IMG/VR virus record: IMGVR_UViG_2706794683_000010
Source: a virus
Lineage: Duplodnaviria > Heunggongvirae > Uroviricota > Caudoviricetes
DNA length: 4,557 nucleotides
Reading direction: 5' to 3' (one strand)
The translations under genes were made by a program, and so were the position numbers. Each line of letters opens with the position of its first letter. The first letter of the stretch is position 1. The notes under the pieces are model-generated. The model saw only the letters and a list, made by a program, of their open reading frames with translations. It was not told where the DNA came from and did no database searches. Positions 1 to 4,557 of the stretch are shown in pieces.

Positions 1-107
1 GGCTGGGACGGAAGTCGCTGTCGTTCTCAAAATCGGTGGAGCTGCATGACAAAGTCATCGGGCATTATCTGAACATAAAACACTATCAATAAGTTGGAGT
101 CATTACC
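1..107 (+). repeat. Left terminal inverted repeat (IR-L), 107 bp; exact reverse complement of 4451..4557
   Basis: Base-by-base comparison of 1..107 with the reverse complement of 4451..4557 shows 107/107 identity; identity ends abruptly at 108 (c) versus the complement of 4450 (t). GC-richer outer part (1..~60), AT-rich inner part (~61..107). Confidence 0.97.
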
Positions 108-489
108 CGTTAAAACATCTGCAGATAATGACGTTGACTTGGATACAGATGGATTCAGACAACTGAGGATATCGTGCCCATCCCCTTCTGCCAGCGGTGC
201 GATTATATTGAGAAAAGCTTCTTATGAATTCGGCAAAAGTATAGGTGTATTTGATTTTGCAAACAATGCATCACCAGCGACGATGACATTTTTGATCCCA
301 ATATATAAAGATGATGATTTTGATTCAGATACTGTTGGTTTTACATTTGCGTTCAAGATGCCAAGAGGCCAGTTTTTTGTAGATGTAAAAGAAAACGGGA
401 ATATCAGAGCTGGAGTTAATGTTAATGGCGAGTCGGGAGTGACCTACGAAAATTGCAAATTGAATATGAAAGATATTAATGATGATTAA
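94..489 (+). CDS. Hypothetical acidic protein, 131 aa, AT-rich moron-like ORF; start uncertain (TTG at 94 inside IR-L, weak SD; first in-frame ATG is at 283)
   Basis: A 396-nt open frame in about 38% GC DNA (my count for 101..489: 146 G+C of 389), where stop codons would normally be frequent. TAA stop at 487..489 is followed 8 nt later by a canonical intrinsic terminator. No signal peptide or hydrophobic segment is apparent by eye. I do not recognise the family. Confidence 0.5.
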   Translation: MESLPVKTSADNDVDLDTDGFRQLRISCPSPSASGAIILRKASYEFGKSIGVFDFANNASPATMTFLIPIYKDDDFDSDTVGFTFAFKMPRGQFFVDVKENGNIRAGVNVNGESGVTYENCKLNMKDINDD

Positions 490-496
490 TATATAA

Positions 497-521
497 GCCG
501 CCAGAAATTGGCGGTTTTTTT
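497..521 (+). terminator. Rho-independent terminator: G-C rich stem (498..503 CCGCCA paired with 509..514 TGGCGG), 5-nt loop GAAAT, then T7 tract 515..521
   Basis: Directly read from sequence: gCCGCCAgaaatTGGCGGttttttt. Lies 8 nt after the stop of the 94..489 ORF and 15 nt before the start codon of the next gene. Confidence 0.8.
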
Positions 522-535
522 ATAGTGGAGACAGT

Positions 536-1927
536 ATGGACTTACCTTCTTTACCTTCTCTTTCTTCACTCTTTTCTGCATCTTCAGGTATCAATTGGCG
601 CGATAATCTTTACGACGCTTCATTTCGTGGCGTTCCGTTTTCGGTGGAGAGCGACGAGGGTTCGTTCGGACGCCGCGTTCAGGTCCATGAATACCCAAAC
701 CGTGACAAACCGTACACGGAAGATCTCGGGCGTGCCACGCGACGGCTGACGATTAATGCGTATCTCGTTGGTGATGATTACGCAGAGCAGCGCGACAGGC
801 TGATTACAGCGATTGAAACCGCCGGGCCGGGGACGCTGATCCATCCGCAGTTCGGTGAAATGCAGGGCTGTATTGACGGGCAGGTGACCGTTTCTCACTC
901 CGGCACTGAAGGCCGTATGTGCCGGGTTTCATTTCAGTTTGTTGAGAGCGGGGAACTGTCATTTCCGGTCGCCGGAGCTGCAACCGCCAGAAAACTGGAG
1001 GAGTCGTCCGTATTCCTGGATGAGTTGATTGAAGACATGTTCGGCGATTTTGATCTCGCGGGAATACCGGACTTTATTCAGAACGATGTTATTGCCCGGA
1101 CGACCGATATGCTGGGAACCGTTCAGACAGCTTTCAAAATGGTTAATTCGGCTGTTTCTGCCGGAGCGAGACTACTGCAGGGCGATTTATCCGTCATTCT
1201 GATGCCGCCGTCGGTTGCCAGTGATTTTGTGCATACGTTGCAGGATACCTGGCGGGCCGGAACCCGGCTGGTGGATAACACACAGGATCTGGTGCAGTCC
1301 ATAACGACAATGTCCGGCATTACGCTGGACCCAGGACTGGCACCGCGTGCGGTGTGGCCCACAGATTCCGCATCGGTTATCAGGCAAAAACAGCAGACAA
1401 ACCTTGTGGCTGCTGTCATCCGGACGACGGCAATCAGCGAAGCCACAAGGGCGGTCACTTCACTGCCACAACCCGGAAGCCTGGTGAAAAATCAGCAGGC
1501 GGTTGTGGCTGTTGGTGGTTCCACTGAACGTCAGTCCGATATTATTCACGTTTCTCATCCGGCACTTGACAGCGTGGCAGCCAGCACAGGACAGGATGAG
1601 AGAGCGCAACCACCCACGCGGGAAAATCTCACCATCATACGCAAATCGCTGAACGCGGCGATTGAACAGGAGCTCAGGCGTACGGCGGATGACAGGCTGT
1701 TTTTTCAGCTGACGTCATTACGTACAGAACTGAACCGGGATATTCAGGCGCGTCTGGTTCAGACGGAGGAAACCGCAGAGCGAACGCCAGCGGAAGTTCT
1801 GCCTGCGCTTGTTCTGGCTGCGTCATGGTACGACGATGCGTCCCGTGAAACTGATATCCTGGATCGAAATGCCATCTCTCATCCGGGCTTTGTTCCGGTC
1901 AGGGCATTAAGGGTACCCGTCAGATGA
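536..1927 (+). CDS. Phage Mu gp43 (N)-like DNA circulation protein, 463 aa
   Basis: ATG at 536 with GGAG Shine-Dalgarno at 527..530 (5-nt spacing). The N-terminal region WRDNLYDASFRGVPFSVE...FGRRVQVHEYPNRDKPYTEDLGRATRRLTINAYLVGDDY matches my memory of the DNA circulation protein N-terminal domain of Mu N-like proteins. Stop TGA at 1925..1927 overlaps the next start (ATGA). Confidence 0.85.
   Translation: MDLPSLPSLSSLFSASSGINWRDNLYDASFRGVPFSVESDEGSFGRRVQVHEYPNRDKPYTEDLGRATRRLTINAYLVGDDYAEQRDRLITAIETAGPGTLIHPQFGEMQGCIDGQVTVSHSGTEGRMCRVSFQFVESGELSFPVAGAATARKLEESSVFLDELIEDMFGDFDLAGIPDFIQNDVIARTTDMLGTVQTAFKMVNSAVSAGARLLQGDLSVILMPPSVASDFVHTLQDTWRAGTRLVDNTQDLVQSITTMSGITLDPGLAPRAVWPTDSASVIRQKQQTNLVAAVIRTTAISEATRAVTSLPQPGSLVKNQQAVVAVGGSTERQSDIIHVSHPALDSVAASTGQDERAQPPTRENLTIIRKSLNAAIEQELRRTADDRLFFQLTSLRTELNRDIQARLVQTEETAERTPAEVLPALVLAASWYDDASRETDILDRNAISHPGFVPVRALRVPVR
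542..559 (+). repeat. Perfect 9-bp tandem direct repeat (ttaccttct x2) inside a 45-nt polypyrimidine tract (541..585) at the 5' end of the N-like CDS
   Basis: 542..550 and 551..559 are both ttaccttct and encode LPS-LPS. In 541..585 I count 40 pyrimidines of 45 nt on the + strand. Confidence 0.7.
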
Positions 1928-3006
1928 ATGATACCGTTTTACTTCGGGTTTCCGGTCGCGAATGGGGCGGCTGGACATCCGTCCGTATCAGTGCGGGCAT
2001 TAACCGTATTGCCCGGGATTTTAATGTTGCCATTACCACCCGCTGGCCCGGAAGCCGGGATTATCAACCCCGGATAAAAAATGGTGAGCTGGTTGAAGTG
2101 CTTATCGGGGATGAGCCTGTGCTCACCGGATATGTGGAGGCACTACCGCTTCGTTATGACGCCAGCAGCGTCAGCATGGGAATTGTCGGGCGAAGCAAAA
2201 CAGCCGATCTGGTTGACTGCTCTGCTTTGCCACTCCAGCAGAGCGGAAAAAACCTGCTCAGAATAGTCAGTGAACTGGCTGCGCCATTTGGCATCACCGT
2301 TGTTGATGCTGGCGTGCCGCAGACAGCGGTGATTGATGCCCAGCCGGAACACGGCGAAACCGTTGCCGATTGTCTTAACCGGTTACTGGGGCAGGTTCAG
2401 ACGCTGGCTTATGACGATGAATGCGGGCGACTGGTTCTGGGAAAACCCGGAACAGGTAAAGCGGCGACGGCGCTGGTGCTGGTGCTGGGAGAGAATATTC
2501 TTTCCTGTGACACGGAAAGAAGCATCAGAGAGCGGTTTTCTGAATATCAGGTCAGTGGGCAGCGCCCGGGCAACGACGATGATTTTGGTGAGGCCACCAT
2601 TGCCGCAATACGTCAGACCATTCAGGACAGTGGCGTGACCCGTTATCGCCCTTTGTTGATTCAGCAGTCAGGCACAGCAACGACAGCAACCTGTAAGGCC
2701 CGTTGTGAATTTGAAGCGCGCCAACGGGCTGCGCTTACCCGTGAGACAACATATACGGTTCAGGGCTGGCGGCAGGGCAGTGGCGCGTTATGGCGTCCGG
2801 GGTTATCTGTCATCGTTTTCGACCCGCTGAATAATTTTGATAATGATGAACTGGTGATCGCAGAAGTTACCTATAACCAGGACGACCGGGGCACGACGAC
2901 TGAATTACGGGTTGGCCCGGCAGATGCTTATCTCCCCGAGCCTGTTACCGCCAGGAAGAAAAAAATGTTGAGGAGGATTTCTGATGAACGGGTTTTCTCT
3001 TCGTAA
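1924..3006 (+). CDS. Phage Mu gp44 (P)-like baseplate hub / tail protein (P2 gpD-like late control D family), 360 aa
   Basis: ATG at 1924 overlaps the upstream stop by 4 nt (translational coupling). Size and position immediately after the N-like gene fit the Mu order N-P-Q. The N-terminal sequence resembles Mu P-like tail proteins from memory. Stop TAA at 3004..3006. Confidence 0.85.
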   Translation: MNDTVLLRVSGREWGGWTSVRISAGINRIARDFNVAITTRWPGSRDYQPRIKNGELVEVLIGDEPVLTGYVEALPLRYDASSVSMGIVGRSKTADLVDCSALPLQQSGKNLLRIVSELAAPFGITVVDAGVPQTAVIDAQPEHGETVADCLNRLLGQVQTLAYDDECGRLVLGKPGTGKAATALVLVLGENILSCDTERSIRERFSEYQVSGQRPGNDDDFGEATIAAIRQTIQDSGVTRYRPLLIQQSGTATTATCKARCEFEARQRAALTRETTYTVQGWRQGSGALWRPGLSVIVFDPLNNFDNDELVIAEVTYNQDDRGTTTELRVGPADAYLPEPVTARKKKMLRRISDERVFSS

Positions 3007-3448
3007 TCTGATTTCCCGGGCTGTCATCACGGCGGTGGATTCCGCCAGAAAGTGTCAGTCTGTAGGGTTGAAAATGATAGCCGGAGATCAGAAACAACAC
3101 GTTGAGCACCTTGAACCTTATGGTTTTACATCTGCCGCACAGAACGGTGCTGAGGGCGTTGCTTTATTTCCGGCGGGCGATCGTTCTCATGGTGTGGTTG
3201 TGGTCGTGGCTGACAGACGTTACCGGCTGAAAGGACTGAAACGTGGGGAAGTGGCGCTTTATGACGATCTGGGACAGTCCGTTGTCCTGACCCGTTCCGG
3301 TATTGTGGTGGACGGGGCCGGGAAGGCCATAATTTTTAAAAACGCGCCTAAAGCGCGCTTTGAAATGCCAGTCGAATCCACCGCCGATATTACTGACAAT
3401 TGCGACAGTGGCGGGATCACTGACACGCCGGATCAACCGATGGGCTGA
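2984..3448 (+). CDS. Phage Mu gp45 (Q)-like baseplate spike / baseplate assembly protein V family, 154 aa
   Basis: ATG at 2984 preceded by AGGAGG at 2971..2976 (7-nt spacing); overlaps the upstream gene by 23 nt. The region GVALFPAGDRSHGVVVVVADRRYRLKGLKRGEVALYDD resembles the OB-fold N-terminal domain of gpV-type spike proteins from memory. Stop TGA at 3446..3448. Confidence 0.8.
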   Translation: MNGFSLRNLISRAVITAVDSARKCQSVGLKMIAGDQKQHVEHLEPYGFTSAAQNGAEGVALFPAGDRSHGVVVVVADRRYRLKGLKRGEVALYDDLGQSVVLTRSGIVVDGAGKAIIFKNAPKARFEMPVESTADITDNCDSGGITDTPDQPMG

Positions 3449-3453
3449 AAATC

Positions 3454-3864
3454 ATGATGATTAATGTTAACGGGCGACCCGTGTCGACCGGGGCTTCGAT
3501 CGACCTTCTGACGCGTGCTGTGATTATTTCGCTTTTTACATGGCGGCGTGCCGGGCGTGATGATGCACCACGGATATTTGGATGGTGGGGGGATACCTGG
3601 CCTGCGGTTCAGAATGATCGCACGGGGTCGCGTTTGTATCTGTTGCGACGCAGCAAGCTGACAAATAAAACCCCGCAGCTTGCCAGAGATTATGTCCGTG
3701 AGGCGCTGGCGTGGATGGTGGAGGATGGTGTTGCTTCCCGTCTTGATATTAACGCTGTCCGGACCGGGACAGACTCGCTGGCACTTGCCATTACCATTTA
3801 CCAGCGTGACGGCAATATTCACAACATTATTTTTGATGATATCTGGAGTGAACTGAATGGCTGA
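3454..3864 (+). CDS. Phage Mu gp46-family baseplate protein, 136 aa
   Basis: ATG at 3454 (ATGATG; weak SD), 5 nt after the upstream stop. Size and synteny match the small gene between Q and the Baseplate_J gene in Mu-like tail modules. Stop TGA at 3862..3864 overlaps the next start by 8 nt. Confidence 0.75.
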   Translation: MMINVNGRPVSTGASIDLLTRAVIISLFTWRRAGRDDAPRIFGWWGDTWPAVQNDRTGSRLYLLRRSKLTNKTPQLARDYVREALAWMVEDGVASRLDINAVRTGTDSLALAITIYQRDGNIHNIIFDDIWSELNG

Positions 3865-4531
3865 CAGTCAGTTTTATCGCCCCGGCCTCCCGCAACTTAT
3901 TTCTATGATCCGGAGCGATTTATTAACCCGCTTTGAGCAGGATACGCTGCTTCGTCGTATGGATGCGGAAGTGTATGCCCGTGTACAGGCTGCAGCCGTA
4001 CACACGTTGTACGGGTATATCGATTATCTTGCCAGAAATCTGTTACCGGACGTGTGTGATGAAGACTGGCTGTACCGGCACGCCAGAATCAAACGCTGCC
4101 CGCGAAAAGAAGCGGTGGCAGCCCGGGGATTTGTGCGCTGGGATGGCGTAGAGGGGACGCCGGTATTGCCAGCGGGAACGCAGATCCAGCGTGATAATCA
4201 GGTGACCTTTACCACGACGGCGACGGTGACCGCAGCCGATGGTCTTCTCCGGGTGCCTGTTGTGGCAGACGAACCGGGATCGGCGGGGAATACGGATGAT
4301 GGTATTGCCATGCAACTGGGAACACCCGTCAGTGGTCTGCCGTCCACAGGGTACGCTGACACCATTACAGACGGTGAAGATATTGAAAATCTGGAAATAT
4401 GGCGTGCCCGCGTTATGGAACGTTATTACTACATTCCACAGGGGGGCGCAGGTAATGACTCCAACTTATTGATAGTGTTTTATGTTCAGATAATGCCCGA
4501 TGACTTTGTCATGCAGCTCCACCGATTTTGA
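3857..4531 (+). CDS. Baseplate_J-like protein (Mu gp47 / P2 gpJ family), 3'-truncated: family-like sequence for about 198 codons (3857..4450), then 26 repeat-encoded codons and a TGA stop inside IR-R; probable pseudogene or fusion
   Basis: ATG at 3857 overlapping the upstream gene. Synteny after the gp46-like gene; N-terminal region with conserved-looking aromatic and charged residues (YARVQAAAVHTLYGYIDYLARN, FVRWDG). The ORF crosses the IR boundary at 4450/4451 and terminates at 4529..4531. Its length (224 aa) is below what I recall for this family (roughly 300 aa or more, from memory). Confidence 0.7.
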   Translation: MADSQFYRPGLPQLISMIRSDLLTRFEQDTLLRRMDAEVYARVQAAAVHTLYGYIDYLARNLLPDVCDEDWLYRHARIKRCPRKEAVAARGFVRWDGVEGTPVLPAGTQIQRDNQVTFTTTATVTAADGLLRVPVVADEPGSAGNTDDGIAMQLGTPVSGLPSTGYADTITDGEDIENLEIWRARVMERYYYIPQGGAGNDSNLLIVFYVQIMPDDFVMQLHRF

Positions 4532-4557
4532 GAACGACAGCGACTTCCGTCCCAGCC
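4451..4557 (-). repeat. Right terminal inverted repeat (IR-R), 107 bp; exact reverse complement of 1..107
   Basis: Same comparison as IR-L. The junction at 4450/4451 lies inside the Baseplate_J-like ORF, immediately after a G6 run (4441..4446). Confidence 0.97.

Follow-up and report, generated by a model that had tools for sequence, protein, structure and literature searches.

The closest known system to the locus described here is the tail and baseplate module of phiP27, an Stx2e-converting phage (NC_003356, genes L48-L52), and of the phiP27-like prophages of E. coli, in which the tape-measure gene is followed by N, the hub gene, V, gp46, gp47, gp48 and the fibre genes. At the protein level the module can also be compared with the simple baseplate of phage Mu, gp43(N)-gp44(P)-gp45(Q)-gp46-gp47-gp48 (PDB 9ki1; PMC11915804), where gp47 is a wedge protein present twice per wedge (PMC11915804). 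IS-driven decay has been described in Shigella, in which IS1 contributes the most IS insertion sites of all (Hawkey et al. 2020, PMC7373316); prophages are not mentioned in the main text of that study.

The stretch of DNA analysed here (the window, 4557 bp) is the entire contig CWTZ01000230.1 (positions 1-4557) of a short-read draft assembly of Shigella sonnei. Its public product names are those of Shigella sonnei or Ss046 (Q3YYR0_SHISS, Q3YYR3_SHISS, CSG07264.1), and the baseplate genes have been publicly named since the first two of these, which are Ss046 genome entries. The window is very probably the baseplate stretch of a degraded phiP27-like prophage, lying between two independent IS1 insertions and recovered as a short-read contig.

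Five baseplate genes of Mu type on a phiP27-like prophage

Five open reading frames were found on the plus strand (536-1927, 1924-3006, 2984-3448, 3454-3864 and 3857-4531). Successive frames share ATGA at 1924-1927 and 23 nt at 2984-3006, are 5 nt apart at 3449-3453, and overlap again by 8 nt at 3857-3864, so that the coordinates and junctions given in the original prediction were reproduced. All five products scored above the Pfam gathering scores of the families predicted for them (DNA_circ_N, GpP/gp44 hub, Mu_Gp45, GP46 and Baseplate_J; E-values 3e-36 to 1.2e-24) and are therefore the products of real genes rather than chance ORFs. For each of the five, the Mu baseplate counterpart (9ki1) was the best or second-best solved relative (6.7e-45 to 3e-12), and the family and PDB matches support the predicted order N-P-Q(gp45)-gp46-gp47, ending inside gp47.

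The first gene (536-1927, plus strand) encodes an intact 463-aa homologue of Mu gp43/N, the tube initiator or 'DNA circularisation' protein (PF07157, DNA_circ_N, 3e-36 with 124 bits, the cut-off being 21; phrog_184 baseplate hub, 6.8e-135). It is followed by the gene for a 360-aa homologue of the Mu baseplate hub gp44/P (1924-3006, plus strand), which carries all four GpP/gp44 domains above their cut-offs (PF21683, PF22255, PF22630 and PF21929), matches 3cdd (3.4e-45) and Mu gp44 (1wru/9ki1, 6.7e-45) in the PDB, and has a frameshifted C-terminus. The third gene (2984-3448, plus strand) encodes a 154-aa homologue of Mu gp45, the central spike or 'baseplate assembly protein V' (Mu_Gp45, PF06890, 1.7e-26), with a 23-aa in-frame deletion, and the fourth (3454-3864, plus strand) an intact 136-aa homologue of Mu gp46, baseplate wedge 1 (PF07409, 4.5e-33; phrog_180; Mu gp46, 9ki1_A, 3e-12). 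The fifth encodes the homologue of Mu gp47 (Baseplate_J, wedge 2) and is phage-derived only up to 4450 (3857-4450, plus strand), the last 26 codons and the stop, to 4531, being read from IS1. With 198 of 360 codons and a match to positions 2-137 only of the 255 in PF04865, it does not encode a full-length Baseplate_J protein; an intact 360-aa relative matched positions 2-255 and Mu gp47 (9ki1_H, 4.1e-36).

The inner segment was 96.6% identical to phiP27 DNA over 90% of its length (window 532-4450), with 94.8-98.3% identity per gene, and its identity to E. coli prophage DNA was 99.0%. This high nucleotide identity, together with the synteny of the late genes, identifies a phiP27-like prophage. 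The 4-nt overlap, the 5-nt gap and the 8-nt overlap are identical in phiP27, and the protein lengths are equal apart from the lesions. In contrast to phiP27, the window has a gp47 cut by IS1, a frameshifted hub, a spike shorter by 23 aa, and an AT-rich moron between the tape-measure gene and N; the remnant lies at ssrA and has lost the head, lysis, stx and early genes. The intact E. coli prophage used for comparison (L001) is annotated with a P27-family small terminase, an HK97-family prohead protease and a major capsid protein.

The window shares its order of five genes with the Mu baseplate, but the relationship is seen at the protein level only, with no megablast match between the DNAs, and the best PDB match of the N homologue, Mu gp43 (9ki1_0, 1.5e-13), is confined to the N-terminal tube-like domain. 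The term Mu-like, used for the module in the original prediction, applies to the tail only. The parent phage was not transposable, and its closest relative, phiP27, has a cos site, terminase and portal genes, a Q-like antiterminator and attR; what the window holds is a Mu-type tail on a non-Mu phage.

IS1 copies at both ends and the surrounding prophage

Both ends of the window are IS1. Positions 1-107 (plus strand) are the last 107 nt of one copy, at its insB-proximal end (IRR), the element running on leftwards off the contig, and positions 4451-4557 (minus strand) are the first 107 nt of a second copy, also insB-proximal (IRR), which is inverted relative to the first and likewise runs off the contig. 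The two stretches are exact reverse complements, forming a perfect inverted repeat, are 100% identical to nt 1-107 of K-12 IS1A, and read GGTGATGCTGCC... and GGTAATGACTCC... at the IS1 ends. In S. sonnei 53G (L006) the full copies, at 5421-6188 on the left, with InsA/InsB genes, and at 10595-11362 on the right, are 768 bp long and 99.6% identical to IS1A, and the InsA/InsB Pfam domains were present in the full copies of complete genomes. Their length of 768 bp, insA/insB, terminal inverted repeats and 9-bp target duplications identify these elements as IS1.

The 9 bp following the left IS1 in the window, CGTTAAAAC (108-116), also precede this IS1 in 53G and occur as a single copy in the intact prophage (L001 15001-15009), so that 108-116 is the right-hand copy of a target-site duplication. 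Similarly, the 9 bp at 4442-4450, GGGGGCGCA, are the left-hand copy of the duplication made by the right IS1; the same 9 bp follow that IS1 in 53G and are single-copy in L001. In this uninterrupted prophage, the sequences found on the two sides of each IS1 join directly. Both copies are thus simple insertions with 9-bp duplications into a collinear prophage remnant.

The flanks of the source isolate are deduced from 14 other S. sonnei chromosome loci, which are 99.8-100% identical to the window over the shared DNA. Directly to the left of the left IS1, sheath, tube, tail-chaperone (TAC) and tape-measure (TMP) genes were found in 14/14 of the loci fetched. Directly to the right of the right IS1 were the C-terminal part of gp47 (Baseplate_J_C, 131 aa, in complete genomes), gp48, a fibre gene, TAP, a further fibre gene and DUF4376, followed by tmRNA and smpB; these right-hand tail genes (gp47 C-terminal part, gp48, fibres and fibre-assembly) were again present in all 14. 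The remnant lies at the 3' end of the tmRNA gene, ssrA, and nothing but the moron and the two IS1 copies breaks its order N-P-Q-46-47-48 after the tape-measure gene, with TMP upstream and gp48 (PF10076) downstream in L003-L017. The complete loci have full-length N, gp46, sheath, tube and TMP, except that in one of the 14 (L016) the tube and gp46 genes are called shorter. Of the head genes, only a fragment of the prohead protease is left, with an IS4 on one side and an IS3-family element on the other, and the 21-kb loci showed neither lysis nor regulatory genes.

The prophage has lost its head and early genes and keeps a collinear Mu-type contractile-tail module, in which one IS1 landed in the AT-rich moron between the tape-measure gene and N, and the other, in the opposite orientation, in codon 198/199 of the gp47 gene. 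With many IS1 copies in the genome, the assembler would have stopped 107 nt into each of these two, leaving an isolated 4.3-kb baseplate contig with inverted-repeat ends, and the isolation of the module is thus probably due to the short-read contig stopping at IS1 repeats. The exact N protein was listed in 3271 blocks of the collection, and in 3132 of these the longest contig carrying it was just 2-5 kb. The case serves mainly as a caution: where a high-copy insertion sequence stands in inverted copies at the two ends of a short contig, these ends are to be read as an assembly break, and not as the boundary of a biological module.

Lesions in the hub and spike genes

Intact relatives of the hub are 351 aa long and end in ...KKKNVEEDF, whereas the hub of the window ends in ...KKKMLRRISDERVFSS, its last 6 residues having been swapped for 13 by the frameshift. 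Alignment to L001 placed the lesion in a run of seven A (2959-2965, plus strand), the ancestral state being A8. The run is A8 in L001 and phiP27, A7 in 9 of the ten S. sonnei loci counted and in the window's own contig, and A6 in the remaining locus (L004). Intact relatives have a 1-nt TGATG overlap at the hub/spike junction; the 23-nt overlap is the result of the 1-bp deletion in the poly-A run and not an ancestral coupling signal. One of the four junctions described as tight coupling in the original prediction is therefore a mutation artefact. The overlapping or abutting starts of the five genes are otherwise inherited and typical of a phage late operon. The hub gene also contains an in-frame hexanucleotide repeat, (CTGGTG)2 at 2473-2484 (plus strand), present in 1-3 copies among S. 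sonnei genomes (regex count across loci), in agreement with hubs of 358, 360 and 362 aa in the different genomes.

The spike is 177 aa long in intact relatives, and the intact form matched Mu gp45 (9ki1_V) at 3.6e-14. In complete S. sonnei loci the 7-bp direct repeat GTGGCGG flanks 69 bp on both sides, and the window retains one copy, at 3408-3414 (plus strand), where two BLAST pieces overlap. The peptide deleted, LSMQQMRQTYNAHKHTENGDGGG, contains HKH, aligned with HIH of Mu gp45, so the 23 residues bearing this HxH motif, kept in all relatives, are gone from the C-terminal tip of the spike in the window. The HxH motif would have a metal-binding role. The loss may have arisen in this isolate by a slippage-type deletion between the 7-bp repeats. 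The 154-aa form was found on just 2 contigs in the collection, which may come from the same isolate, and the 69-bp deletion is known from these two deposits; a read-level artefact is conceivable, though a k-mer assembler would not be misled by a repeat as short as 7 bp.

Judging by these lesions, with gp47 split, the C-terminus of the hub frameshifted and the spike tip missing in this isolate, the module is probably dead as a machine.

Alternative explanations

The original prediction had taken the block for a stand-alone, baseplate-only fragment, with the sheath, tube, tape-measure, gp48 and fibre genes lost or moved elsewhere. Only N to the truncated gp47 is indeed found within the 4557 bases, and both ends fall at structural breakpoints, but the window makes up an entire contig with IS1 at its ends, and the search for the remaining tail genes found them adjoining, just past each IS1 of 768 bp, in 14/14 S. 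sonnei chromosome loci, where they follow the phage order and are collinear with the intact prophage; a stand-alone fragment is very unlikely. It verges on the impossible that the two IS1 and the 4.3-kb segment brought in the baseplate genes as one unit in the manner of a composite transposon. Inverted copies do bracket the segment with the same end facing inwards, as in known IS1 composite transposons, but each IS1 has a separate 9-bp target duplication and, by comparison with L001, the same prophage runs on unbroken beyond both copies, whereas transposition of a unit would leave a single duplication on the outside and an inner segment foreign to the DNA flanking it. The IS1-bracketed unit was also present in no E. 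coli complete genome, the best coverage, 95%, being that of the inner segment only.

The nearly complete tail gene set, running from sheath to fibres with just a fragment of one head gene and with N, gp46, sheath, tube and TMP at full length, might instead be a domesticated phage-tail bacteriocin, a tailocin, as a tail-only remnant still used by S. sonnei. Against this stand the gp47 gene split by IS1, the frameshifted hub C-terminus, the shorter tube and gp46 genes called in L016, and the IS4 and IS3-family element bounding the head genes, which point to IS-mediated deletion; a head-protease fragment is still there, the 21-kb loci carry no lysis or regulatory genes, and the locus does not have the make-up of an R-type tailocin, which leaves a tailocin extremely unlikely. 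We consider it highly improbable, too, that the remnant is partly active, whether by a slip at A7 restoring the hub C-terminus in combination with a host-serving sub-assembly, or by the IS1-bracketed segment moving or inverting as a unit. The ancestral hub C-terminus would then be regained by slippage on A7 (A AAA AAA), either a -1 slip of the ribosome or one in transcription, and the genes that are intact (N, gp46, sheath, tube and tape measure) would be kept for a use such as a partial tail-like structure or an effect on superinfection; no result of this analysis, made from sequence alone, supports A7 slippage, a host-serving sub-assembly, or mobility or inversion of the segment. The plasmid collection gave weak matches in the gp46 region only, covering no more than 4% of the query, so a plasmid origin is rejected.

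As a degraded phiP27-like prophage interrupted by IS1, the locus is an ordinary observation, one more documented case of the known IS-driven decay of prophages, here by IS1 in Shigella sonnei. IS1, IS4 and an IS3-family element interrupt or bound the remnant, and its IS1 insertions, with their 9-bp duplications, are common to S. sonnei genomes, with no substantive difference from the decay described in Shigella (Hawkey et al. 2020, PMC7373316). A first literature search on S. sonnei, IS1, prophages and pseudogenes yielded nothing specific to this prophage remnant. The hexanucleotide polymorphism of the hub, the isolate-specific in-frame loss of the spike tip and the uncharacterised moron of the tail operon are extras, of use at most for typing or as curiosities.

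The moron and the left edge of the phage DNA

The block was also predicted to begin exactly at N, with both edges at compositional or structural breakpoints. Phage DNA begins earlier, at 108, inside the moron, and its true left edge is the IS1 junction at 107/108. The AT-rich DNA, the terminator and the right-hand repeat are real, but the left-hand AT-rich DNA and terminator lie within the tail operon, since the moron is found in intact E. coli prophages too, again between the tape-measure gene and N. GC content was 0.335-0.37 for windows between 201 and 600 (0.335-0.34 within 201-500), against about 0.55 in the genes. The terminator is an intrinsic-terminator-like hairpin and T-run after the moron (495-524, plus strand; site 495-517), with a 10-pair stem, 5 GC pairs and a T-rich tail by consensus scan; it was the only convincing one of 7 such sites in the window, where 4.5 were expected. 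The promoter scan gave 3 sites against 3.9 expected by chance, and the Rfam scan of the window returned zero RNA families.

The window holds the 3' part of the moron (about codons 34-160; 108-489, plus strand), cut by IS1 and 100% identical to L001 15001-15382; the IS1 end supplies 14 nt of the listed ORF (94-489), with its TTG start. Neither Pfam nor PADLOC had a match for the moron, and the fragment matched phrog_5586, a family of unknown function in PHROGs, at 2.4e-76 over profile positions 32-161 of 161. The full-length moron in L001 is a 160-aa hypothetical protein (WP_000594909.1), whose structure, predicted from an alignment of 8 sequences, reached a mean pLDDT of 40.7 and a pTM of 0.37, values too low for a fold search, and the homologue search returned 9 hypothetical proteins. 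PhiP27 lacks the moron, which at least 11 E. coli prophages carry between the tape-measure gene and N. The moron product has a signal peptide and a lipobox-like motif.

Two IS1 insertions in a phiP27-like prophage remnant of Shigella sonnei

The genes belong to a phiP27-like prophage remnant that lies at ssrA in Shigella sonnei, has been degraded by IS elements and was already annotated. The two ends of the window (1-107 and 4451-4557) form an inverted repeat with 100% complementarity. Compared with the IS1A annotated in E. coli K-12, both match its insB-proximal end (nucleotides 1-107) at 100% identity; no other insertion sequence accounts for as many insertion sites in Shigella as IS1 does (PMC7373316). 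An exact-protein look-up showed that the window spans contig CWTZ01000230.1 (4557 bp, draft assembly GCA_001252555.1) from end to end; its products carry S. sonnei names in the sources (e.g. Q3YYR0_SHISS and Q3YYR3_SHISS, strain Ss046). The exact N protein was present in 3271 blocks of the collection, with the longest carrying contig only 2-5 kb in 3132 of these. We take this to mean that short-read assembly of S. sonnei has stopped at these two IS1 copies in thousands of cases.

One arrangement was common to all 14 S. sonnei chromosome loci sampled for context, including HE616528.1, which we take to be strain 53G. From the left it comprises rluD, bamD, IS4, a 120-aa prohead-protease fragment and an IS3-family element, then sheath, tube, tail chaperone and tape measure genes, IS1 (forward), the inner segment of the window, IS1 (reverse), the gp47 C-terminal part, gp48, fibre, fibre-assembly, fibre and DUF4376 genes, and finally the tmRNA gene and smpB. 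Alignment of 53G with L001, the prophage of E. coli FDAARGOS_944 that has no IS at either site, showed that each IS1 copy is 768 bp long and that its two flanks join without a break in the uninterrupted prophage. Each copy is bounded by its own 9-bp target duplication, CGTTAAAAC at the left IS1 and GGGGGCGCA at the right. Because the flanks are contiguous in L001 and each copy has its own duplication, IS1 inserted into a collinear tail operon twice, each time independently and as a simple insertion, which rules out both the movement of a composite transposon as one unit and the suggestion that the remaining tail genes had been lost or lay elsewhere. The central reading of the original prediction, a baseplate-only fragment with breakpoints at its module edges, is an artefact that arises from the contig ending in IS1 on both sides. 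The IS1-bracketed form was found in 0 of 5426 E. coli complete genomes, where the best coverage was of the inner segment alone.

Other differences were seen around the remnant. Beyond smpB-ratA-ratB and an IS4 copy, 53G (locus L006) continues into bamE-recN and most S. sonnei into raiA-pheA (L003-L012, about 18100-20675), which suggests an IS4-mediated inversion that differs between S. sonnei lineages. At one chromosome locus (L008), a further integrase-bearing element is inserted near ssrA. Outside the window, roughly 170 bp is missing from the tail-fibre and fibre-assembly region in S. sonnei relative to L001 (L006 13170-13205 against L001 21209-21412), and the genes called there for the fibre and TAP come out shorter, a further lesion of the remnant.

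A Mu-like tail in a prophage that is not Mu-like

Over the inner segment, identity to the Stx2e phage phiP27 is 96.6% and to the FDAARGOS_944 prophage 99.0%. Mu gave no megablast-level DNA match. As phiP27 has a cos site, terminase and portal genes, a Q-like antiterminator and an attR site, and the L001 annotation lists a P27-family small terminase and an HK97-family prohead protease, the likeness to Mu is confined to the tail; the description "Mu-like" holds there, but "Mu-like prophage" is the wrong label.

Within the segment, the gp46 gene (3454-3864) is only 92.5% identical to its L001 counterpart (18411-18824), with a 3-nt indel, while the genes adjoining it are 99.3-100% identical to that prophage. 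The gene is closer to phiP27 (96.6%) and, by this pattern of identities, resembles a short patch of mosaic recombination. The FDAARGOS_944 prophage is decaying too, with ISEc60 copies splitting its portal and sheath genes (L001 4068-5258 and 9781-10971), a frameshifted terminase, and a frameshifted ipaH gene just past the tail fibres.

A truncated moron gene precedes the baseplate genes

AT-rich DNA to the left of the baseplate genes (GC 0.335-0.34 in windows 201-500, against about 0.55 in the genes) and a terminator (hairpin and T-run at 495-517) are present as predicted, but both belong to a moron gene and do not mark a module edge. A gene for a 160-aa hypothetical protein (WP_000594909.1) lies between the tape-measure gene and N in L001 and in at least ten further E. 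coli prophages; phiP27 lacks it, with 15 nt separating those two genes. Window 108-489 is the 3' part of this gene (L001 14900-15382 in full), as IS1 cut it at about codon 34 and removed about the first 33 codons, and the listed ORF at 94-489 has a TTG start codon supplied by the IS1 end. The N-terminus of the full-length protein, MIKPFLMTVAILTSCC, is read as a predicted signal peptide in which LTSC forms a lipobox-like motif. The family is tiny, with 9 proteins (Shigella, E. coli and Yersinia), and confined to Enterobacteriaceae; Pfam and PADLOC scans of the moron protein gave no match, and its AlphaFold model was too poor for use (pLDDT 40.7).

Five baseplate genes and their lesions

The five same-strand genes were recovered by ORF listing and direct reading at 536-1927, 1924-3006, 2984-3448, 3454-3864 and 3857-4531, with the predicted junctions: a 4-nt ATGA overlap, a 23-nt overlap, a 5-nt gap and an 8-nt overlap. 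All five products scored far over Pfam gathering scores, and the predicted families withstood this check, a failure of which would have refuted them, with every product placed as expected: N in DNA_circ_N (3e-36), the hub with all four GpP/gp44 hub domains, the spike in Phage_Mu_Gp45 (1.7e-26), gp46 in GP46 (4.5e-33) and gp47 in Baseplate_J (1.2e-24, over profile positions 2-137 of 255 only). PHROGs agreed with Pfam (baseplate hub, hub, wedge, wedge). In a solved-structure search, every protein or an intact relative of it matched the corresponding chain of the Mu baseplate (9ki1), with E-values of 1.5e-13 (gp43), 6.7e-45 (gp44), 3.6e-14 (gp45), 3e-12 (gp46) and 4.1e-36 (gp47); in Mu these are the tube initiator, hub, spike, wedge 1 and wedge 2, respectively (PMC11915804).

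The overlapping or abutting gene starts are the inherited arrangement of a phage late operon. The 23-nt hub/spike overlap had been taken as part of a tight translational coupling, but although its coordinates are correct, it was made by mutation. At 2959-2965 the hub gene carries A7, against A8 in both L001 and phiP27, and the frameshift changes the hub C-terminus from ...KKKNVEEDF to ...KKKMLRRISDERVFSS before the stop, which is shifted 23 nt into the spike gene; in intact relatives the junction is a 1-nt TGATG overlap. Since A7 is common to 9 of the 10 S. sonnei loci compared (A6 in the other, L004) and to the window's own contig, it is a lineage mutation rather than a coupling device or a read error. 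The run is an A AAA AAA heptamer, and a hypothetical -1 slip there would bring back the ancestral hub C-terminus NVEEDF.

Between two GTGGCGG repeats, the spike gene has lost 69 bp in frame, which takes out LSMQQMRQTYNAHKHTENGDGGG, whose HKH aligns with the HIH of Mu gp45; spikes of this kind bind a metal ion through an HxH motif at their tip. This variant was found on only two contigs of the collection. The gp47 gene is cut after codon 198 of 360. With gp47 split, the hub end changed and the spike tip also lost in this isolate, we infer loss of function, and the baseplate block is almost certainly non-functional; in Mu, gp47 is used twice per wedge and the hub end contacts the spike and tape measure (PMC11915804).

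The hub gene also carries an in-frame (CTGGTG)n repeat (window 2473-2484) whose copy number ranges from 1 to 3 in S. sonnei genomes (53G and L008 have 1, the window and L003 have 2, the others have 3), giving hubs of 358, 360 and 362 aa, and this could serve as a typing marker.
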